Shown in pieces: positions 1-10,801 of a stretch of 10,801 nt of DNA (position 1 is the stretch's first letter; each line of letters opens with the position of its first letter). The stretch comes from Candidatus Jordarchaeia archaeon. GTDB taxonomy: Archaea > Asgardarchaeota > Jordiarchaeia > Jordiarchaeales > Jordiarchaeaceae. Both the position numbers and the translations under genes were made by a program. The notes under the pieces are model-generated. The model saw only the letters and a list, made by a program, of their open reading frames with translations, was not told the DNA's origin and ran no database searches. Location of the stretch: NCBI GenBank assembly GCA_029856435.1, contig JAHQXB010000111.1, forward strand, positions 1 to 10,801. The letters run 5' to 3'.

Positions 1-302
1 TATAGAGTTTCTCATTAATTTTTTCCTAAACCTCTCCTTAACTCGGGGTTATTTAAGGCTTCTTTTCCCAAAAGAGGCGGAAAAAAACCATATTTTCTGG
101 AAGCGAAAAGGAAAAATTAACTGGAATGTCTATAGTCTTTTCTTCATTTCTTTTTTATGAGGGGGCAGGGCTCAGCAGTATTTTTTTAAATAATAGGTAA
201 TGGGAAGTTTAAACTACTGAGGGTATCTAATCAAAGGAATTATGCTCTCTTTTCTAAAAGTCAAGAGGTTTTTCTCGGTTTGGTTTCGTTTTCTCTACTG
301 AT

Positions 303-654
303 TATGGTGAGCTCTCTTACTCTTATTCCTCCTTCCTCAATTACAATGACTGCTTCTTTTTTTAACAGTTCTATTTGGGGTTATGAGAGTAATGGCATTT
401 GATTAACATTTTCGGGTGAGGGTTTTTTCAGACGTAAAATTATGGTTGAGGGTTTTTGATTTTGTGTATCTAGTGTGTCTCCAAAGTCGAGGTTCATGGT
501 TATTAAAATCATATTATTTTCAATGGCGTGTTCTAGTATTTCTTGGTCTTTAGATTTAGCCACTGCAAGATCGCTTACCCTCACCTCTTCGTAATCATTT
601 TTCTTCAGGAATTCAAAAGTTTTGGGAGAAAGGTATGTCCATTAGAAACTTTAT
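303..654 (-). pseudogene. DUF5615 family PIN-like toxin (VapC45-like), disrupted
   Basis: Read by hand on the minus strand: (ATA)KFLMDIPFS, then a frameshift near 625, then KTFEFLKKNDYEEVRVSDLAVAKSKDQEILEHAIENNMILITMNLDFG...KPSTIILRL..PSPENVN, an in-frame TAA at 381-383, then PQIELLKKEAVIVIEEGGIRVRELTI. This matches the family pattern MKFLxD...D.eIl..A......iT.D.DFg...ivvieegriRvR.lpi. The start is ATA rather than ATG, and the T.D.DF motif reads TMNLDF. Family call is from recall, not a search. Confidence 0.75.
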
Positions 655-660
655 GTTTTT

Positions 661-876
661 CACAGGAATTATTGTCTCGGTGGTAGCCTAGGCAGCGAAT
701 TCCAAAGCCTGTTTTTTATCCTCTTCTTCGAGTTCTGGGTAATCTTCAATTATTTCTTTGAGGGCTTTTCCAGAGGCAACCGGGCGGACGATGAGAGACT
801 CCGGTATCCTTAACCTTCTAATACAAGGTTGCCCGCCCATTACATTCGGATCAATTGTAATCCTGTTAAATTCTAA
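661..876 (-). pseudogene. DUF433 family antitoxin (VapB45-like), probably disrupted
   Basis: RITIDPNVMGGQPCIRRLRIP...EIIEDYPELEEED..QALEFAA is the DUF433 signature. The SD AGGTGA (+ strand 881-886) is followed by TTA (874-876) where a start codon is expected. A TAG at 688-690 interrupts the frame, which continues as ATTETIIPV, resembling the usual family C-terminus. Confidence 0.78.
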
Positions 877-932
877 TTTTTCACCTTTGAATATTGGATG
901 CCACTTCAAACAATGTGTTTATAACAGCAACC

Positions 933-947
933 AACTTAAATTTTCTC
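933..947 (-). promoter_or_regulatory. Possible BRE-TATA promoter of the DUF433/DUF5615 pair
   Basis: The minus strand reads GAGAAAA-TTTAAGTT about 47 nt upstream of the DUF433 SD. It lies in an AT-rich region, so a chance match is possible. Confidence 0.3.
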
Positions 948-1108
948 ACTAATACAAATAGCGCTTATCACATTGTTGTGCTCGGGCTATTTCAAGATGT
1001 TAAAAGGTTTATTTTTTTTAATTTGAATTTTTTATTTAGCAAGTCATTAGCAGTTAACAAAAAAATAAGCCTTATAAAAACTAAATAAAATGATTTAAAC
1101 GCGTAATA

Positions 1109-1123
1109 CTTCTCACTGAGAAG
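1109..1123. repeat. Perfect 7-1-7 inverted repeat CTTCTCA-C-TGAGAAG (possible operator)
   Basis: Seen directly in the sequence, 8 nt downstream of a TATA-like TTTAAAC (1094-1100). The function is only inferred. Confidence 0.4.
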
Positions 1124-1275
1124 CCGTTTTGTAGGAGCTTTTGATGCAATCCACATTGGTCATTCCAATTTTCAATTTCTTTGGCCGAAGAGATGCTCTT
1201 CCAAGGTCTGCACTCCACAATGGAGACGGTAAAAAATGGTTTAGATTTTTTGGAGGATTCATCAATGTTTCTTGG

Positions 1276-1294
1276 CCCCTTGCCAAAAAAGGGG
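1276..1294 (-). terminator. Possible terminator of the MFS gene (6-bp stem CCCCTT/AAGGGG with a U6 run on the minus strand)
   Basis: Lies about 35 nt past the MFS stop. The minus strand reads CCCCTTTTTTGGCAAGGGG. Archaeal intrinsic termination uses oligo-U tracts. Confidence 0.3.
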
Positions 1295-1329
1295 GGAAGG
1301 AGATTAACCAGTGTTCACAGCAGGGTTCA

Positions 1330-2904
1330 CTATTTCTTGGCTAATTCTTTTCGTCGCTCCACTAGTAGGTCAATTATCTTTTGTCTATCCTTGGGATAGT
1401 ACTTGTAGGCAAAGAACCAGAATAGGAAACATAGAGTCCAGGGAATTGTGACAAACAGCATCATGGAGTAGGATAGGGCTTGTCCCGCAAAAGTCATCCA
1501 AATCACTAGCCACACCACTGGGGTTCCTGCAATCAGCCAGAAGCCTATGTAGGGGCTAACCCAGCCCATTACGAATCCAGCTGTTCCACCATTTATTATG
1601 TTGTCAGCGAAGAAGCCCACAAGAACCGCGGCGAGGGCCCCGAATCCCTGCTCGAAAATCTGTTCCAGAGACCAGGCAGTACTCCTAACCTCAGGCTTGT
1701 TAACAGAAGCAACAATGGGGTTAACAGCGCCGCTACCCGCCCAACTAATCAGAACCGCAGTAACAAGTGCAAAAATCATGAAAGCAAGAAAGTCCTGCAC
1801 CAAGAACAGAAGAATCCAAGACATAGGCACACCAACAATAACTGAAATTTGCGCAACAATTATCCTACCCTTATTAGGAAATCTTGACTCAGCCTTGTCA
1901 CCCAGAAAACCGCCTAGAACGTTACCAGCAGCTGAACCCAGCACAATCATTGCAAAAACCATGGTAGCCTGCTCTGGAGCAAGGTAACGTACACTCTCCA
2001 ACCAGTAAATAAGCCAAACCTGATACACCACCCATGGAAAATACCCTGTCAATCCCTGCGCAATGATAACCCACATAGTTGGTATTCTGAGCACCTCAGC
2101 TGCTGCTTTTCGGTCTATTTTGTATTTTTCCACGTTTTCCTTGGTGATTACGTCCATTAGCTCCTTCTCCGACGCTCCCCGCACTGGCTCCTTCAAGAGC
2201 AATGCCACCATTGCTGCTATTATGAGGCACACTATACCCAATAGTCGAAAGCCGTTTCTCCATGCACCCAGATATACTGTCTGTTTCAGTACGTAGTCCC
2301 ATAATAGTAGGGATTTGAGCCAGTCCAAAAATCCAGGCACATACTGCAGTATGAGTAGTTGGGTTAGGTTGGATTCTATTCCGAATGTTAGGCTGGGAGC
2401 GTCAAGCATTCCCAGAACCGGCACCGTAATTACAATTCCCAGCATACCCATGAGTGCGAATATGCCGAACATTCTGCCTCGAACTTCTGGTTTGTATATG
2501 TCTACTATTATGGAGAAGCTCGTAGGAAAGATGGCTGCCAGTCCTATTCCCACAATGATTCTGAAGTATAGTAGCTCTTCAAAGCTTCCCGAGAAGGATA
2601 TGAGTAAAGTAGCAATGGACCATATTAGTATACCTGCCACCAGTGTTTTTTTGCGTGAGAACCTGTCTGATAGATATCCCCAAATGGGTAGGGCGGCTGT
2701 TTGAACCAGTGCACTTACTGTGTTCACGAAACCCAGCGAGGTCCGTGCTACTGCGAACTCCCTCCCTATGGAGTTCAGGTAGGTGGGTAGCGCTTGAGTG
2801 TCGGCGTTGTTTGTGAAGTATGCTGCACCAATGGATGCCATGTTCCTTTTTCTATAGGGTATTTTGTCCTCCCCTTTCGTTTTTGTCGACTCCTTTTTCG
2901 ACAT
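1330..2904 (-). CDS. Major facilitator superfamily (MFS) transporter, substrate unknown
   Basis: 524 aa with about 12 hydrophobic segments. MFS motif A appears as GYLSDRFSRKK and is echoed by GFLGDKAESR in the second half. TM4 reads FRIIVGIG, and KPEVRG/KPEVRS are repeated in the two halves. Confidence 0.9.
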   Translation of the reverse strand: MSKKESTKTKGEDKIPYRKRNMASIGAAYFTNNADTQALPTYLNSIGREFAVARTSLGFVNTVSALVQTAALPIWGYLSDRFSRKKTLVAGILIWSIATLLISFSGSFEELLYFRIIVGIGLAAIFPTSFSIIVDIYKPEVRGRMFGIFALMGMLGIVITVPVLGMLDAPSLTFGIESNLTQLLILQYVPGFLDWLKSLLLWDYVLKQTVYLGAWRNGFRLLGIVCLIIAAMVALLLKEPVRGASEKELMDVITKENVEKYKIDRKAAAEVLRIPTMWVIIAQGLTGYFPWVVYQVWLIYWLESVRYLAPEQATMVFAMIVLGSAAGNVLGGFLGDKAESRFPNKGRIIVAQISVIVGVPMSWILLFLVQDFLAFMIFALVTAVLISWAGSGAVNPIVASVNKPEVRSTAWSLEQIFEQGFGALAAVLVGFFADNIINGGTAGFVMGWVSPYIGFWLIAGTPVVWLVIWMTFAGQALSYSMMLFVTIPWTLCFLFWFFAYKYYPKDRQKIIDLLVERRKELAKK

Positions 2905-3510
2905 ATACCATCTCTTCTCTTTTTCTTTCCAATTTTTTTGAGTAACATATTATTTGTTTATATGGGGGTAAAAAGGTTTCTGGAACAGTTTTTTGGGGGA
3001 GCTTTTTTGGCTTGGGTGCTGACGGTTCTTTTGCCCGGATTTCTAAAATCATAATTTTCTTTCCCCCTTTTCTCAGAGGAGCCTTATTATCCCTATGTTT
3101 AAGCAACACTTCAGTATACTAGTTTTTTGCAGTGCTACTCTACATTAGTTTTGCCTCAGAATTCCCGCAGGCCCCTATTTTTATACAGGAAGGTGTTAAA
3201 AAAATGGTGGGAATTTCTCAGCCACAAAAACAGATTAGGTGATGCAGATTTATTCGGCTCCATCTCCCTAATAAGGCTCCAAATCGTGAAAGAAGCCCTA
3301 TAAACACCCCTTTTTTGAGGCGAAACCGAACAATTCTACATCACCGAAAAAGAAGACAAAAACGCTTTTTTTGGAAGGAAGACTTCTTTAACTGTTTATG
3401 CCAAGAACAGATGAAAAAAACTTTTTAAAATTATTATGGGGGCTTTATTTTTTCTGGGATATTCTGAAAAAAATGTTTGTTTTGTTGACTTAAGGGTGTG
3501 TTTCGAGTGT

Positions 3511-3577
3511 GGGGGGTGTGGAATGAGGTGATTTTTTGTGGGTTTGGGGTGGGGTTGTGTGGGTTTTGTGTGGGTTT
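3511..3577 (+). repeat. G/T-rich low-complexity patch with an 11-bp tandem repeat (TGTGTGGGTTT x2, 3556-3577) and a canonical G-quadruplex pattern (3540-3563)
   Basis: 73 of the 80 nt in 3501-3580 are G or T. G-runs at 3540-42, 3546-49, 3551-54 and 3561-63 are separated by loops of 3, 1 and 6 nt. Confidence 0.7.
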
Positions 3578-3595
3578 TGCGGATCCAGCCTTTAA

Positions 3596-3611
3596 TGTAC
3601 ATTTTTGTACA
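3596..3611. promoter_or_regulatory. Tandem TRP boxes TGTACA-N4-TGTACA (TrpY-type operator)
   Basis: TGTACA occurs at 3596-3601 and 3606-3611, abutting the BRE. TGTACA is the TRP-box consensus bound by TrpY at the Methanothermobacter thermautotrophicus trp operon. I noticed no other exact TGTACA in the window (manual scan). Confidence 0.72.
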
Positions 3612-3626
3612 CGTAAGTTTTAAATA
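3612..3626 (+). promoter_or_regulatory. Archaeal promoter of the trp operon: BRE CGTAAGT plus TATA box TTTAAATA
   Basis: Matches the cRnaAnt-TTTAWATA consensus. The predicted transcription start is about 3648-3651, giving a 5' leader of about 40 nt that contains the SD GGAGG (3678-3682). Confidence 0.8.
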
Positions 3627-3691
3627 TGACTCAAGGGTATAATTCTCATCATAAGATTTCGTCAGCCAACTATTACCGGAGGATTAGCATA

Positions 3692-3748
3692 GTGAGGTAT
3701 AGCCTTTGGGTACAAACCACAAAACACCCGCCAAAAACCATCACCTAA
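3692..3748 (+). CDS. Putative Trp-containing leader ORF MRYSLWVQTTKHPPKTIT; alternatively the first segment of a +1 frameshifted trpE
   Basis: SD GGAGG at 3678-3682, a 9-nt spacer, GTG at 3692 and TAA at 3746-3748. The single Trp codon is codon 6 (TGG 3707-3709), directly after CTT (3704-3706). Confidence 0.5.
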   Translation: MRYSLWVQTTKHPPKTIT

Positions 3749-3800
3749 CCAGCTCAAACTGAAAAAGTTTCCAACAGACCTCTCACCAACAGAACTCTTT

Positions 3801-5108
3801 TTGAAAATCCACCAAAAATACCAATACGCATACCTCCTAGAATCCCTAGAGGGACCACGAAAGCTAGCCCAATTCTCATTTTTAGGATTCATGCCCCAAC
3901 AAATCATAACTTCAAAGAATGGACAAACAACACTACAAGACCTGGAATCCGGCGAGAAAACCAAGTTTAAAGCCAGCAACCCTCTCCAAGTGGTGGAAAA
4001 AGTTCTTGCAAGAAAAACCCCCGAGAACCACCTTGAAAAATCCCGGTTTGTGGGGGGAGCCGTTGGATATATTTCCTATGACGCCATACGCTACTGGGAA
4101 AAACTGCCCAGCCACACCATAGACGACTTGAAATATCCAGACCTCCAGATGGCAATATACAATGACGGCGTGGTTTTCGACCACATCCGCGGAGAAACCC
4201 TATACTATTACCGGGAACAAGACCGCTCCCAAGAATTAGCAGAGCTAACAGAACCAGAAAATTTTGGAAGTTTATCCTTCACAGATCCCAGAGTGAACAT
4301 TACAAAAGAAAAATATGAGGAAGCAGTTAAGGGAGCCAAAAAATACATTGTTTCCGGCGACATTTTTCAGGTGGTTCTATCCAAAAGATTTGATTTCACC
4401 TTTAGGGGAGACCTCACAAGATTCTACCTAGCTCTGCGCCAAATTAATCCCTCCCCCTACATGTATTTTTTAAAGATGGGGGATAGGCAAATTGTGGGTT
4501 CCAGTCCTGAGATGCTAGTGAGGGTTGAGCGAGGCAGCGTGGAAACCTTTCCCATCGCTGGCACAAGGCCCAGAGTGGAGGATCCAGCACAAAATAGGGT
4601 TTTGGCCAGGGATCTCTTGATGGATGAGAAGGAGTGTGCTGAACACGTGATGCTTGTGGATCTTGCTAGGAACGATTTGGGTAAGGTGTCCCGTTTTGGA
4701 AGTGTTCGTGTCCCAGAATTTATGCAGGTGCATGAGTATAGCCATGTCCAACACATTGTTTCCAGAGTGGTGGGAAAGCTTAGAGGGGACTGTAGTTGCT
4801 ACGACGCTCTAAGGGCGGTTTTTCCAGCTGGTACAGTTTCGGGAGCTCCAAAGGTGAGAGCCATGGAGATAATTGAAGAATTTGAGCCCACAAGGAGGGG
4901 CCCCTACGCGGGCGCTGTAGGCTACTTTTCCTACAATGGTAACATGGATTTCGCAATTACCATACGCACACTGGTTGCAGACCGAAATAAGTGCTTTATT
5001 CAGGTGGGGGCGGGAATAGTGGCGGACTCGGTGCCTGAGAAGGAATGGTTTGAAACCGAGCATAAAGCAAAGGCTTTACTTAAAGCATTAGAATTGTCAG
5101 AAAGGTGA
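3801..5108 (+). CDS. trpE: Anthranilate synthase component I; 3801 is only the first canonical in-frame start and the true N-terminus is probably further upstream
   Basis: Trp-feedback motifs LLES and NPSPYM are present, along with chorismate-binding motifs [37 protein letters not shown] and GAGIVADS. First gene of a full trp operon. The frame is open from 3696. Confidence 0.95.
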
Positions 5109-5114
5109 TAAACT

Positions 5115-5696
5115 GTGAAGGTTCTCATCATTGATAATTATGACTCCTTTGTTTATAATCTGGTGCAGTATGTGGGTGAGCAGGGGGCGGAGCCCATTGT
5201 TTATCGAAACGATGAAATAACCATAAAGAAAGCTGCGAAGCTTCGCCCCGATAGGATAATCATTTCCCCCGGCCCCGGAACCCCTGAGGATGTGCGGTAC
5301 TTTGGTGTATGCTCTGAAATTCTAAGAAGGTTGAGTTGCAGAGTTTCTACTTTGGGAGTATGTTTAGGCCACCAGGGAATTATCTCCACTTTTGGGGGAA
5401 GGATTGCTGGTGCTAAGAGTTTGAAGCATGGCAAAACAAGCTTGATAAAACATGATGGCCGGGGCGTTTTTAGGGGAATGGAGAATCCCTTTGCAGCTAC
5501 ACGTTACCACTCCCTGGTGGGAGAAAGGAAAGCCCTCCCCTCCTGCTTGGAGATTACTGCTGAGTCCCTGGATGGTGGGGAGATTATGGCGGTGCGCCAT
5601 GTTGAGTATCCTATTGAGGGAGTTCAGTTTCATCCCGAATCAATTCTCACTAGGGGTGGAAAAAAGATGATAAAAAACTTTCTGGATGGCAGGTAG
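5115..5696 (+). CDS. trpG: Anthranilate synthase component II (class I glutamine amidotransferase)
   Basis: IDNYDSF, SPGPG, nucleophile motif GVCLGHQ, RYHSL and the His-Glu of QFHPES. GTG start 6 nt after SD AGGTGA (5103-5108). Confidence 0.96.
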   Translation: MKVLIIDNYDSFVYNLVQYVGEQGAEPIVYRNDEITIKKAAKLRPDRIIISPGPGTPEDVRYFGVCSEILRRLSCRVSTLGVCLGHQGIISTFGGRIAGAKSLKHGKTSLIKHDGRGVFRGMENPFAATRYHSLVGERKALPSCLEITAESLDGGEIMAVRHVEYPIEGVQFHPESILTRGGKKMIKNFLDGR

Positions 5697-5704
5697 GTGA
5701 AACC

Positions 5705-6766
5705 ATGATTAGAGAGGGAATCCAAAAACTGGTTGAAGGAAGAGACCTAGACAGCCATGAGGCAACAGCCATAATGAAGGAGATAATGCAGGGCAGCGCC
5801 ACCCCAGCTCAGGTTGGCTCGTTTTTGACCGCCCTCAGAATGAAGGGTGAAACAGTCCAAGAAATATCAGCATTCGCAGCAGTGATGAGAGAGTTCTGCC
5901 ACCGCATCCACCCAAAGGTTAATGGTCGACTAGTAGACACTTGCGGAACTGGTGGAGACAGGATAAAAACCTTTAATGTGAGCACTGCTGGAGCCTTTGT
6001 CATCGCCGGTGCGGGAATACCTGTAGCCAAGCACGGTAACCGCTCAGTCACCAGTAAAAGTGGCAGCAGCGATGTCCTAGAGAAACTGGGCTTCAACCTC
6101 AACGTGGAACCCAGAGTTGTGAAGGAAAGTATTGAAAAAATTGGGGTGGGCTTCATGTTCGCTCCAAACTTCCACCCTGCAATGAAACACGCCATAGGGC
6201 CAAGAAGGGAAATAGGGATACGCACAGTCTTCAACATACTAGGCCCATTAACCAACCCCGCGGGAGCCAACGCCCAAGTGCTAGGAGTATATAGTAGGGA
6301 ATGGGTGGAACCCCTGGCCCAAGTTTTGAGAGAGTTGGGATGTAAAGAAGCAATGGTGGTTCACGGTGTAGATGGACTGGATGAAATCTCCATCATAGGA
6401 AAAACTTTGGCGGCTCAGCTCAGAGATGGAGAAGTATCCCTAAAGGAGATATCGCCCAAAGAGTTTGGCTTCAAAACAGCCAAGCCCGAAGAAATAAGCG
6501 GAGCATCCCCCGAGGAGAACGCCCAACTCCTGGTAAGGCTGCTAAGCGGCAATCTTCAAAAACAGGATCCAAAAAGGAACATGGTACTACTCAACTCGGC
6601 GGCGGGAATAGTGGTTGGCGGAAAAGCTGAGAACCTAAAGGAAGGAATAGAACTGGCAAAGGAATCCTTGGAGAGTGGAGCTGCATATCAGAAATTGAAA
6701 AAGTTGATTGAGAAATCCGGCGGACAACTGTCCATACTTGAGGAGTATGAGCGGAAGTATGCCTGA
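5705..6766 (+). CDS. trpD: Anthranilate phosphoribosyltransferase
   Basis: DTCGTGGD, FNVST, KHGNRSVTSKSGSSD, FNILGPLTNP and GLDEIS motifs. SD AGGTGA at 5695-5700. Confidence 0.97.
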   Translation: MIREGIQKLVEGRDLDSHEATAIMKEIMQGSATPAQVGSFLTALRMKGETVQEISAFAAVMREFCHRIHPKVNGRLVDTCGTGGDRIKTFNVSTAGAFVIAGAGIPVAKHGNRSVTSKSGSSDVLEKLGFNLNVEPRVVKESIEKIGVGFMFAPNFHPAMKHAIGPRREIGIRTVFNILGPLTNPAGANAQVLGVYSREWVEPLAQVLRELGCKEAMVVHGVDGLDEISIIGKTLAAQLRDGEVSLKEISPKEFGFKTAKPEEISGASPEENAQLLVRLLSGNLQKQDPKRNMVLLNSAAGIVVGGKAENLKEGIELAKESLESGAAYQKLKKLIEKSGGQLSILEEYERKYA

Positions 6767-7544
6767 CTACATTGACCTCCTAGCCAAAGAAGCCGCTAGG
6801 CGGGTGGAGGAAGGCTACTACAAAAATACTCCAAAATCCCGCCTCTCAGCTAGGCCCAAAAGCTTGAGGGAAGCAGTTCTAGGGTGCACCAGAACACCCA
6901 TCATTTCCGAAATAAAGTTTGCTTCGCCATCCAGTGGAACCTTAAGGGAGTACACTTCTCCAAGGATAATTGCCAAGGCTTTGGAGGAAGGGGGCTCGGT
7001 AGGCATATCTGTGCTCACGGAGCCCCGAAATTTTGGGGGCAAACTAGAATTCATAGGTGAGATTCGAAGCCAAGTGAGTGTACCCATACTTATGAAGGAC
7101 ATTGTCCTGAGCCCGGTTCAGATTGAAGCAGCCTATAGAGGCGGTGCGGACGCTGTCCTGCTGATACAAGCCCTCTTTGATAGGGGTTACTGTGAGGGGG
7201 ATGCGCAAAGTATGATTGGTCAGGCTCATAGTTTTGGTTTAGAAGTACTTTTGGAGTCGCATAGCGAGGAGGAGTTCCTCAGAGCGGTGAAAACCAGTGC
7301 TGACCTTGTGGGCATAAATAACCGGGACTTAAAAACACTCAAAGTAAACTTGGAAGTTACGAAACAAATTCTGTCTAAGCACTATCCGCGGAGAAAGGTG
7401 GTTGTGAGTGAAAGCGGCATAAACACTCCCCAAGATATTCGCTTCCTCAGAGAATGTGGTGCCCGAGCCTTCCTTGTGGGAACCTCCATTATGAAATCAG
7501 ACAATATAAGGGAGAAAGTGGTGCAGCTGGTGGAATCAATATGA
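6759..7544 (+). CDS. trpC: Indole-3-glycerol phosphate synthase
   Basis: EIKFASPS, SVLTEP, LMKD, GADAVLL, GINNRDL, VSESGI and LVGTSIM motifs. I place the start at ATG 6759 (MPDY, 8-nt overlap with trpD) rather than at the ORF-track start 6708. ATG 6747 is an alternative. Confidence 0.94.
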   Translation: MPDYIDLLAKEAARRVEEGYYKNTPKSRLSARPKSLREAVLGCTRTPIISEIKFASPSSGTLREYTSPRIIAKALEEGGSVGISVLTEPRNFGGKLEFIGEIRSQVSVPILMKDIVLSPVQIEAAYRGGADAVLLIQALFDRGYCEGDAQSMIGQAHSFGLEVLLESHSEEEFLRAVKTSADLVGINNRDLKTLKVNLEVTKQILSKHYPRRKVVVSESGINTPQDIRFLRECGARAFLVGTSIMKSDNIREKVVQLVESI

Positions 7545-8200
7545 GAACTGTTCGCGTGAAAATATGTGGAATAACTTCAACTAGAGACCTTCAAGCAGCT
7601 GTAGATGCTGGGGCAGATGCGGTGGGGTTTGTGGTGAACGTGCCTCAATCTCCCAGAAATCTTCCTCTTGAGACAGCCAAAGAATTAATGAGAATTGCCC
7701 CCGTGTTTCTGGAGACAGTAATTGTCACAGTTGCGAATAGTCTTAACGACTTGGAAAAAATTTGTGAAGAGTTAAATCCCACCACACTCCAAGTCCACGC
7801 CACCAACCAGATTTACCAAGAGGTAAAGGAAAGGTATCCGAACACTCGCTTAATTGGGGCCGTAGGAATCCCACGGCATGGCTCTCTGAATACGCTGGAC
7901 GCCGCACTAAGGGCTGCGGAAATATTGGACGCGGTGCTCGTGGACACAAGTGTGCCAGGCGAGTATGGAGGCACAGGGAAAATTCATGACTGGAACTTGA
8001 GTAGGAGGATAAGAGATGCCATTTATCCTATACCATTAATTCTTGCTGGGGGACTAACTCCAGAAAATGTGAAGCAAGCCATAGCATTGGTTGAGCCCTA
8101 CGCTGTGGATGTTTCCAGCGGCGTTGAGGTCGGCCCTGGAGTAAAAGACCGGGAAAAGGTTTATCGATTCGTGAAAAGTGCTAAGGAAGTGGAAAGATAA
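7541..8200 (+). CDS. trpF: Phosphoribosylanthranilate isomerase
   Basis: [36 protein letters not shown] and VDVSSGVE motifs. Start placed at ATG 7541 (ATGA overlap with the trpC stop) rather than at 7454. Confidence 0.95.
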
Positions 8201-9411
8201 TGGAGTCCAAACCAAAGAAGTTGAAACATTTTCCTGTGGGTGGAAAATTTGGGAAATATGGCGGCCAGTTTGTTCCCGAAACGCTTATGCCGGCCTGTGA
8301 AGAGCTTGAAAGGGCATACCTGGAAGCAAGGAGGGATCCGCAGTTCCAGAAACAGTTAAACTATTACTTGGCAGAGTATGCTGGTAGGCCCACCCCCACA
8401 TATTATGCTGAAAACCTGACCAGAAAAATCGGTGGAGCGAAAATCTATCTTAAGCGTGAAGATTTAGCTCATGGGGGAGCACACAAAATAAATAACACGC
8501 TGGGACAGGCACTGCTTGCAAAAAGAATGGGTAAAACTAGAATAATTGCGGAAACCGGAGCGGGACAACATGGAGTGGCCACCGCCATAGCCTGCGCCGC
8601 CCTAGGACTGAAAGCGGAAATATATATGGGCGCTGAAGACGTGGAAAGGCAGAAGCTTAACGTTTTCAGAATGAGGCTTCTGGGAGCTGAGGTCCACCCC
8701 GTAAACTCCGGCTCAAAAACGTTAAAGGACGCCATAAACGAAGCTCTAAGAGATTGGGTAACCAACATTCAGGACACCTACTATTTGATAGGCTCCGTGG
8801 TTGGTCCCCACCCCTACCCTATGATGGTGAGGGACTTTCAAAGCGTTATTGGAAGCGAGATAAGACTGCAAATATTGGAGAAGGAGGGGAGGCTTCCAGA
8901 CGCCCTTGTAGCTTGTGTAGGTGGAGGTAGCAATGCCATAGGCACATTCCACCCCTTCCTAGACGATGAGCAGGTAGAGCTTTACGGCGTTGAAGCTGCA
9001 GGTCTGGGAATTGACACCGGAAAACACGCCGCCTCACTTTGCGGGGGAGATGAGGGAGTCTTCCATGGAATGCTAACATACATCATACAGGATGAGAACG
9101 GTCAGATACTAAACACCCACAGTGTTTCAGCGGGCCTAGACTATCCGGGTGTGGGCCCAGAGCATGCCTTTCTCAAAAGCATTGGAAGAGCAAGGTATGT
9201 CGCTGCAACTGATGAGGAGGCAATAAGTGCTTTCCTTGAACTATCAAAAAGTGAGGGCATCATTCCGGCGCTTGAACCAGCCCATGCCCTGGCATTCGCC
9301 ACAAAGCTGGCCAAAGCCTTGGGCAGAGGAAAAATTATTGTGGTAACCCTCTCTGGAAGGGGAGACAAAGACGCAGAAGTGATAGCTAAACGTTTGGGAG
9401 TGAAAATATGA
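8200..9411 (+). CDS. trpB: Tryptophan synthase beta chain (TrpB1, operon type)
   Basis: [20 protein letters not shown]-lysine motif [36 protein letters not shown] and [13 protein letters not shown] overlap with trpF. Confidence 0.98.
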
Positions 9412-10232
9412 GGGAAATAGAAAAAACATTTTCGGAGCTCAGAGGAAGGGGCGAGGGTGGACTAATTGCCTATATTACTGCTGGCTACCCGGAACTGGAG
9501 GACACCCTCACCATTGCGGGTACGCTAATCCAGGGAGGAGCGGACATCATTGAACTGGGGATACCCTTCTCAGACCCCATAGCCGACGGCCCCACCATTC
9601 AAACTGCGACTACGAAGGCTTTGCAGGCTGGAACCACACCCAGAAAAGTTTTGGAGATAGCAGAAGAAATCAAGCAGAGAAACAAAACCCCTCTGGTAAT
9701 TCTCACATATTATAACCCTATTTACCGCATGGGAATAGAAAACTTCTTTGAAACCGCCAAAGCCTCGGGAATAAGCGGAGTAATCGTTCCCGATCTACCC
9801 ATAGAAGAAGCGGGAGAATACCGAAAAACCGCTGTAAAGTATGAGGTGGACACCATATTCCTTGCCGCTCCCCCCACACCCACGGAGCGTCTAAAAAGGA
9901 TTGTGGAGAACACTTCGGGTTTCCTCTACCTAGTCTCAGTCTATGGGGTTACTGGGGCCCGACAGAAGATCCAGGACCAGACCATAAAATTAATTGAAAA
10001 AACACTTTCCATCACGCGGGGAAAAACGCCTCTAGCTGTAGGCTTCGGGATATCAAAGCCGGAACACGTAAAAACAGTGATACACAGGGGAGCGGACGCC
10101 GCCATAGTGGGAAGCCAAATCATAAAAATCATAGAAGACAAACACAAACACAACGACGATGAAGAAATGCTTAAAACACTAAAAGAATACACCAAACAGC
10201 TAAAAAAAGCAACGAAAAAGAAAACCCCATAA
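9408..10232 (+). CDS. trpA: Tryptophan synthase alpha chain
   Basis: [48 protein letters not shown] and GADAAIVGS motifs. ATGA overlap with trpB. Confidence 0.98.
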
Positions 10233-10729
10233 GAATCATCCAAAACAGAGAACACTCGCAATTCCCACCTTTAAAACACCCCTCAATAAACAACTACGCC
10301 AATCCTTCCCTCAAAAATGTGGAGAAAAACCAGAAGCGGAAATAAAATGAAATGAAAAGAGAAGAATCCAAGAGGGAGGCACGTTATTAGAAGTTTTTGT
10401 CGTGTGGATCCTGCTGTTTCAGGGTGGCAGGATTTTTCTTTTTGGTGTTTCATTTGTTGGCAATGTGGATTTATTTGGCTTCGTCTCCCGGGTAGGGCTT
10501 AAAATCGTGAGAGAGGTTTACAAACGCCCCGTTTTTTTGAGGCATAGACTAACTATTATACCACCTTCATTTGTTTTATGGAGCTAACCTGACTCTGTCT
10601 GGCATTATGGCGAATTCTCCATTCTGACCCAGCGTTAACCTTGTGTAACCTTGTTTTCCTTAGGGTTTTATTCAGCCCCGAACCTCTTCCGGGTTGATCA
10701 AGGTTCACATGTGCTTTCCCCATTTCAGG

Positions 10730-10801
10730 TTAGATCTTCCTCAACTTCTCATAAGCTTTCGGAAAAGTTTGGGGTGAAGAAGGAACTGCCTCTACCTTCC
10801 T
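10730..10801 (-). CDS. Possible C-terminus of a convergent gene entering from the right edge (...RKVEAVPSSPQTFPKAYEKLRKI*)
   Basis: This is the only minus frame open from the window edge for more than 20 codons, and it has protein-like composition. No family recognised. Confidence 0.3.
   Translation of the reverse strand, partial: RKVEAVPSSPQTFPKAYEKLRKI

Follow-up and report, generated by a model that had tools for sequence, protein, structure and literature searches.

The window, by which we mean the whole stretch of DNA that was analysed, comprises 10,801 nucleotides, positions 1-10,801 of the forward strand of contig JAHQXB010000111.1 in the assembly GCA_029856435.1 of Candidatus Jordarchaeia archaeon. 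It carries a tryptophan operon headed by trpE, which gives the single trpE match in the whole genome. The encoded protein contains both expected Pfam domains, PF04715 (Anth_synt_I_N) with E = 7.6e-37 and PF00425 (Chorismate_bind) with E = 1.7e-96. The features of the operon and of its upstream region are given below in the order of their positions.

3596-3601 and 3606-3611, forward strand: two TGTACA boxes resembling TRP-box operators, read in the sequence, 4 nt apart and just before the TATA-like box.
3618-3627, forward strand: TATA-like box of the trp operon promoter, read in the sequence, the transcription start being presumed from it.
3678-3682, forward strand: Shine-Dalgarno (SD) sequence GGAGG for GTG 3692, with a 9-nt spacer.
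3692-3748, forward strand: leader open reading frame (0 frame), GTG start, 18 codons, the sole Trp being codon 6, TAA at 3746-48.
3694-3700, forward strand: conserved 5' element of the cassette, SD-like GAGG at 3694-3697 followed by N-A-U at 3698-3700.
3704-3710, forward strand: proposed shift site, with CTT in the P site (3704-06), TGG in the 0-frame A site (3707-09), TTT for re-pairing (3705-07) and GGG as the next codon (3708-10).
3708-5108, forward strand: body of trpE, anthranilate synthase component I, in the +1 frame as it would be read after the shift, 466 codons and a stop.
5115-10232, forward strand: trpG, trpD, trpC, trpF, trpB and trpA, all intact, with the Pfam domains GATase, Glycos_transf_3, IGPS, PRAI, PALP and Trp_syntA, respectively.

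The longest-ORF starts of trpC (TTG 6708, ORF 6708-7544) and trpF (ATG 7454, ORF 7454-8200) reach 59 and 91 nt, respectively, into the preceding genes. The true starts probably lie further downstream, as the Pfam matches begin at residues 45 and 35. A G/T-rich low-complexity tract at 3495-3580 is located between a divergent MFS transporter gene (1330-2904, reverse strand) and the trp promoter.

The trpE frame is open from position 3696, just after a TGA at 3693-95, and the first ATG, GTG or TTG in it is the TTG at 3801, as the first-pass annotation had pointed out. The same annotation had remarked that TTG 3801 is not preceded by an SD sequence, whereas trpG (GTG 5115) and trpD (ATG 5705) have SD sequences of the AGGTGA type, and this observation holds. 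Its assignment of the residues upstream of 3801 to TrpE is borne out by the Pfam domain Anth_synt_I_N, which begins at residue 28 of the reading from 3696. In the AlphaFold model of the +1 reading (62 relatives), the mean pLDDT is 85.8, and strand 1 and helix 1 are formed by residues 21-24 and 31-41, respectively; therefore, a start at TTG 3801, which corresponds to residue 36, would truncate the fold. The first 14 residues of the +1 reading are disordered in the model, which is thus silent on whether these residues are made. In the relatives L016 and L010, the trpE frame contains no ATG, GTG or TTG ahead of the conserved LLES motif.

A start codon with a proper SD sequence is found in the other frame. 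GGAGG at 3678-82 sits 9 nt before GTG 3692, and the ORF in this frame runs for 18 codons to the TAA at 3746-48. A +1 slip between CTT 3704-06 and TGG 3707-09 yields a product of 471 aa, and an internal SD-like GAGG is present at 3694-97. All these elements had been named at the first reading of the DNA and were found again at the same positions.

The class of this genome (Freyarchaeia/Jordarchaeia, Asgard) is represented by 11 species genomes, 10 of which hold the 5' end of trpE, and the same cassette layout was observed in all 10, one of them a closed genome (G005). Proteins with 75-90% identity have the source names Candidatus Freyarchaeota and Jordarchaeaceae, in line with the Asgard placement. 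A metagenome scan with the TrpE N-terminal domain provided 80 further loci with 43-62% identity, and the comparison set consisted in total of 92 related loci from independent assemblies. A scan of genome contigs by whole-protein alignment returned mostly bacterial TrpE matches. The search pattern consisted of a start codon, RGG, two groups of three bases, NTT and TGG, in frame -1 relative to trpE, and the cassette has a length of 18 nt. The pattern is matched by 88 of the 92 related loci; of the remaining four, two are cut by contig ends, L129 is a close variant with an in-frame GTG, and L177 has an ordinary start. In the comparison of relatives proposed in the first-pass annotation, the out-of-frame start and NTT-TGG are conserved together. 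The main group used for the base counts below contains 85 distinct loci, which form 32 clusters at 70% identity, and many of these relatives are Bathyarchaeia by their source names.

The cassette was also found in further Asgard lineages, namely as a Thorarchaeota variant and in a Lokiarchaeia-labelled MAG, and in a Thermoplasmata-like class, where 37 trpE 5' ends were examined out of 401 genomes sampled. In this class, 23 of the 37 have the cassette, with a leader of the form M, 1-4 residues, R, R/G, D, x, F/L/V, W, and the other 14 have ordinary in-frame starts. Other Asgard TrpE types, of about 505 aa, begin at a normal ATG. The layout was found in more than 120 independent assemblies overall. 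As the cassette is common to Asgard, Bathyarchaeia and Thermoplasmata-like archaea, it would be either ancient or spread along with this trpE lineage.

The strict motif was found at no other gene of the 3.5-Mb genome from which the window comes, and with its recurrence in 88 of 92 related loci the layout far exceeds what chance would produce. A second strict match on contig C69 was discounted, as it is surrounded by short ORFs in all frames and shows no SD-like sequence in the 20 nt upstream. Two apparent cassettes in Anaerolineae were likewise put aside as chance matches within T-box-like leaders. When aragorn was applied to the same 3.5-Mb MAG, just three tRNA genes were predicted, one of them with an implausible 664-nt intron, so that the tRNA genes of this MAG are either unassembled or unusual.

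The bases at the proposed shift site are the most informative part of the cassette. NTT-TGG is invariant across the 85 main-group loci, and the Phe codon at the site in the trpE frame is always TTT (position 16 is T in 85/85), compared with 47% TTT among the remaining 1,855 Phe codons in these genes. The 0-frame UGG is thus selected for itself. The trpE-frame codon that precedes Phe ends in C or G in 79 of the 85 loci, and where this codon encodes Ala, only GCC and GCG occur; GCA and GCT, with a joint share of 56% of the Ala codons elsewhere, are absent. This restriction on Ala codons indicates that CUU or GUU is preserved in the start-codon frame. The P-site codon in the main group is GUU in 45 loci, CUU in 34, AUU in 5 and UUU in 1, while the Thermoplasmata-like class has UUU (11), CUU (10) and GUU (2), and with any of these NUU codons two or three base pairs can be retained on UUU. 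In every cassette found, the A site is occupied by the sense codon UGG. The related leader ORFs have 7-26 codons with a tail that is not conserved, and exactly one Trp codon occurs in 82 of the 85. In L213, the leader ORF lies about 60 nt 3' of the start called at 801 and contains two Trp codons in a row at the shift site, and the same locus has a degenerate second copy of the cassette further upstream, close to the TATA box.

The place at which the frame changes can be narrowed down from loci in which one of the two frames is closed. In the Thermoplasmata-like loci L245 (G539) and L247 (G563), a TAG in the trpE frame stands directly before TTT-GGC (L245:196-198 and L247:172-174), although no other stop interrupts the trpE frames over their 451 and 465 aa, respectively. 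In these loci, the ribosome must therefore still be in the start-codon frame at GUU. On the other side, the start-codon frame of eleven main-group leaders stops one codon after UGG. If the mechanism is shared among the lineages, the shift window is pinned to NUU-UGG and one further codon. The choice of CUU-UGG-G as the site, made at the first reading, is therefore backed by the invariant NTT-TGG, by the TAG codons in the +1 frame and by the early leader stops.

The position of the cassette relative to the start codon provides additional information. In six Thorarchaeota loci, an ATG lies 9-10 codons upstream of the cassette, and over the Thorarchaeota and the Thermoplasmata-like class together this distance is 2-10 codons, which indicates that the cassette need not adjoin the start codon. 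A skip of the base right after the initiator codon, which was favoured at first on account of the +1 codon-like variation, is ruled out by these distances. In two of the Thorarchaeota loci, L187 (G323) and L188 (G328), the codon ahead of UGG is CAU, whose re-pairing on AUU is poor. The cassette is duplicated in these two loci: CAT precedes the Trp codon in one copy, and in the other, further upstream, a Tyr codon comes after CTT (CUU-UAY). Four Thorarchaeota loci with GTT-TGG are without an upstream CTT-T copy.

The 5' part of the cassette resembles an SD sequence placed within the coding region. G-R-G-G at cassette positions 3-6, which was demanded by the search pattern, is complementary to the anti-SD sequence of the 16S 3' end ...CACCUCCU. 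The N-A-U that follows was left free in the search; in the main group, position 8 is A in 78 of the 85 loci and position 9 is T in all 85, and RGG-GAU recurs in the Thermoplasmata-like class. From the internal GAGG of the window, the distance is 6 nt to CUU and 7 nt to UUU, and in the genome as a whole GGAGG/GAGG peaks 7-8 nt ahead of start codons. The first-pass annotation had raised the caveat that the internal spacing of 6 nt is longer than the 3 nt of prfB. This caveat is eased in part by the genome optimum of 7-8 nt, and L247 is without the tract. By analogy with prfB, the pairing of GAGG probably favours the +1 register. The fold z-score is +0.85 for 3655-3760, and the mean z ranges from +0.09 to -0.61 for three regions in relatives, with 82-84 loci each; RNA structure that might act as a stimulator was not found. 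A pause caused by a rare AGG is excluded, as AGG accounts for 27% of the Arg codons, and a slow-codon feature was searched for in the cassette without any being seen besides UGG.

The bases between the start codon and the site raise the question of an alternative in which the ribosome slips earlier, or for a second time, at the conserved RGG-N, with AGG 3695-97 re-pairing on GGT; I-A-F-G would then be translated, and the main-group cassette would be dual-coding. In the main group, these bases vary like codons of the +1 frame, which is unexplained by a Leu-Gly junction product, as it would not contain the residues in question. The third position of GGN is A in 32 loci, T in 29, G in 21 and C in only 3; the ATH codon is Ile in 91% of loci (ATC 42, ATA 21, ATT 14), and the codon after it is RYN. 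T is invariant at position 9, against a share of 38% for NAT among the NAY codons elsewhere. Position 4 is always a purine, as would be needed for a CCU or CCC anticodon that re-pairs on GGN, and RGG is found upstream of the cassette in nearly all lineages. However, the stop after the Ile codon in the +1 frame of L245 and L247 led us to reject an early slip as the general mechanism and to keep it as a possible additional route in the main group. L237 and L251 have Thr or Asn in place of the +1 Ile, RGG is not accompanied by a pause signal with AGG being a common codon, and the N-terminal 14 residues that would be gained are disordered in the model. An early slip alone also leaves the invariant 0-frame UGG unexplained. 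We consider this alternative unlikely.

The variation in the main group can be accounted for either by such an earlier slip at RGG-N or by a constraint on RGG-NAU at the level of the RNA or the leader peptide. The latter is favoured because the Thermoplasmata-like class keeps the same bases even before a stop, and because the 0-frame Asp of its leaders is retained across a GAT-to-GAC change.

Initiation within the trpE frame itself, at ATA 3699, CTG 3759 or TTG 3801, with the GTG-led ORF as a separate upstream leader, would make a frameshift unnecessary, and public gene calls include readings of this kind. At least one annotation of the relatives begins M-A-F-G, that is, with the Ile codon as a start, and calls that begin M-F-G or V-F-G occur where the next codon is ATG or GTG (25/85 loci). 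For ATA 3699, however, the SD sequence would be 16 nt away compared with the genome optimum of 7-8 nt, the Ile position is occupied by GTC, GTT, TTC or TTA in some loci, and in L245 and L247 it is followed by a stop, on the strength of which a start at the Ile codon was rejected. CTG 3759 is not conserved among the relatives. TTG 3801 truncates the domain, and L016 and L010 have no in-frame start there. None of these starts explains the conserved UGG, and such an origin of TrpE is in our view very improbable. For this trpE lineage, the public gene calls disagree with one another, being truncated, extended or begun at the Ile codon, and metabolic reconstructions of Asgard, Bathyarchaeia and Thermoplasmata genomes can for this reason give the impression that tryptophan prototrophy is broken.

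A change of frame in the DNA or RNA, whether by a sequencing or assembly indel, by decay of a pseudogene or by the loss of one U through transcriptional slippage, would give the identical product from a one-base change in the T-run, and in one MAG (L220) the trpE body shares the frame of the start codon, but we give it hardly any weight, because more than 120 independent assemblies, the closed genome among them, show the layout, the trpE frames are intact, the operon is complete, and the U-run has merely 3-4 bases, which is far below the lengths known for polymerase slippage. The one-base assembly error against which the first-pass annotation had warned is excluded in the same way by the recurrence of the layout in 88 of 92 loci from independent assemblies. 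In L220 (L220:401-470), a MAG of the Bathyarchaeia type, the cassette is intact, and the arrangement would have arisen either in nature, by a fusion of recent date, or through an assembly error of one base 3' of the Trp codon.

The loci in which the cassette has been replaced show what accompanies a normal start. Loci that have gained an in-frame start either no longer have the Trp codon (L256) or are without the cassette (L177, L189 and the 14 of 37 Thermoplasmata-like 5' ends). In the Thermoplasmata-like L256, a GTG start lies in the trpE frame, the Trp codon is replaced by GGG, and the former leader frame is closed at once by a stop; in this locus, the Trp codon disappears once a frameshift would be unnecessary. 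In L234 and L238, also Thermoplasmata-like, the remnant of the cassette forms an ordinary start site, which consists of a G-rich tract, 8 nt and a TTG in frame with trpE. Public annotations place the start at this TTG, and the use of this arrangement as an ordinary start indicates that the tract can act as an SD sequence.

Taken at the level of the genomes compared, these results demonstrate that a change to the +1 frame is required, that the cassette is deeply conserved and that the shift occurs within a located window. From them we infer the slip mechanism, the role of the SD-like element and a response to the tryptophan supply, the last of these from the conserved Trp codon within the leader of a trp operon. 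It is in our judgement likely that trpE is expressed by a programmed +1 frameshift, similar to that of prfB, at a hungry Trp codon. Ribosomes would initiate at the SD-led GTG 3692 and read five codons, upon which the peptidyl-tRNA-Leu on CUU 3704-06 would meet UGG 3707-09 in the A site. When charged tRNA-Trp is plentiful, UGG would be decoded and translation would terminate after an 18-residue peptide. When charged tRNA-Trp is scarce, the A site would stay empty and the P-site tRNA would re-pair in the +1 register on UUU, after which GGG would be read next, leading into the remaining 466 codons of trpE and the operon behind it. The SD-like GAGG 6-7 nt upstream would probably promote the +1 register, as in bacterial prfB, and no RNA hairpin would be involved. 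The slip would raise the amount of TrpE and probably the translation of the whole operon.

The Trp codon has long been held in the leader of a trp operon, exactly at the slip-prone site, and for this reason the cassette is probably a built-in tryptophan sensor. We incline to the view that it works as a translational attenuator without a hairpin, in which charged tRNA-Trp would set the entry of ribosomes into trpE via a selected +1 shift at a hungry codon.

The region upstream of the leader contains the signals for transcription and initiation. The two TGTACA boxes of the window correspond to the TRP-box consensus. GTAC boxes are found upstream of trpE in 69 of 82 related loci, paired in 44, and paired boxes precede trpE in Asgard, Bathyarchaeia-type and Thermoplasmata-like loci. 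In the related loci, a TATA-like element lies at a median of 52 nt upstream of the start codon. An SD-like motif is present in 73 of the 82, with a spacing of 8-10 nt in most of these, and the 16S 3' end of the relatives is ...GGAUCACCUCCU. The 16S gene of the closed genome (L207:3069-3099) has an insert of about 30 nt right before the conserved 3'-terminal CCTGCGGCTGGATCACCTCC, which may be an rRNA mini-intron; G006 (L206) is without the insert. TrpY binds TRP boxes and brings about transcriptional repression of trpEGCFBAD in Methanothermobacter, and little beyond TrpY is known of tryptophan regulation in Archaea according to a 2019 paper (PMC6737238). The window and most related loci are similar to the Methanothermobacter system in that TGTACA-type boxes adjoin the TATA box upstream of trpE, which suggests a shared operator of the TrpY type and an additional transcriptional layer. 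TrpY acts on transcription, whereas the cassette would add a translational layer downstream.

Among the known systems, the closest in mechanics is bacterial prfB, which encodes release factor 2 and is autoregulated by a +1 frameshift at CUU-UGA-C; in E. coli, the internal SD sequence is 3 nt away, and N-A-U follows the G-rich tract. The prfB frameshift is covered in Atkins 2016 (PMC5009743). Both sites consist of a P-site NUU followed by U (CTT-T at 3704-3707 in the window) and a slowly decoded A-site codon, both have an upstream SD-like G-rich tract, which L247 lacks, and then N-A-U, and neither has a downstream structure. In both cases, the efficiency of the shift would report the supply of the product of the pathway or gene. 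However, the A-site codon of the trpE cassette is the sense codon UGG, whereas that of prfB is the stop codon UGA, which is read by the encoded factor, so that trpE would sense charged tRNA-Trp where prfB senses its own protein. Between the SD-like tract and the slip codon there are 6 nt in trpE and 3 in prfB, the 0-frame ORF of trpE continues for 1-20 codons, and its host is an archaeon.

Attenuation by trpL in bacterial trp operons shares with the cassette a short 5' leader ORF whose Trp codon or codons would sense charged tRNA-Trp via stalling. The cassette differs in having neither terminator nor antiterminator hairpins, as judged from the fold z-scores, and in a leader that overlaps the start of the trpE coding region in another frame. 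Its output would be a change of reading frame, whereas that of trpL is read-through of transcription.

To our knowledge, shifting at hungry codons has been described just in starved laboratory cells and reporter constructs. The yeast Ty1 frameshift at CUU-AGG-C relies on a constitutively scarce tRNA. In these cases, as in the proposed mechanism, a P-site tRNA slips while the A-site aminoacyl-tRNA is limiting; unlike them, the trpE site would be a conserved and selected regulatory device of a biosynthetic operon. For hungry-codon frameshifting, Gallant and Lindsley 1992 is the work cited in PMC8211752. The same 2021 review reports fucA1 of Saccharolobus solfataricus, with a -1 shift, as the sole cellular programmed frameshift in Archaea (PMC8211752). 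fucA1 is likewise an archaeal cellular gene that requires ribosomal frameshifting for its full-length product, but its shift is -1, uses an A-rich heptamer and a stem-loop, is not known to follow any metabolite logic and occurs in just a few Sulfolobales.

Full-text literature searches that combined archaeal frameshifting with trpE or anthranilate synthase returned nothing relevant, and trpE is absent from the 2016 recoding review (PMC5009743) and from the 2021 archaeal recoding review (PMC8211752). If the present reading is true, the cassette would be the first cellular +1 programmed frameshift in Archaea. We know of no earlier natural amino-acid sensor that works by frameshifting at a hungry codon. 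It would then represent a new solution to tryptophan sensing, in which the logic of leader-peptide attenuation is combined with the mechanics of the RF2 frameshift and RNA structure plays no part.
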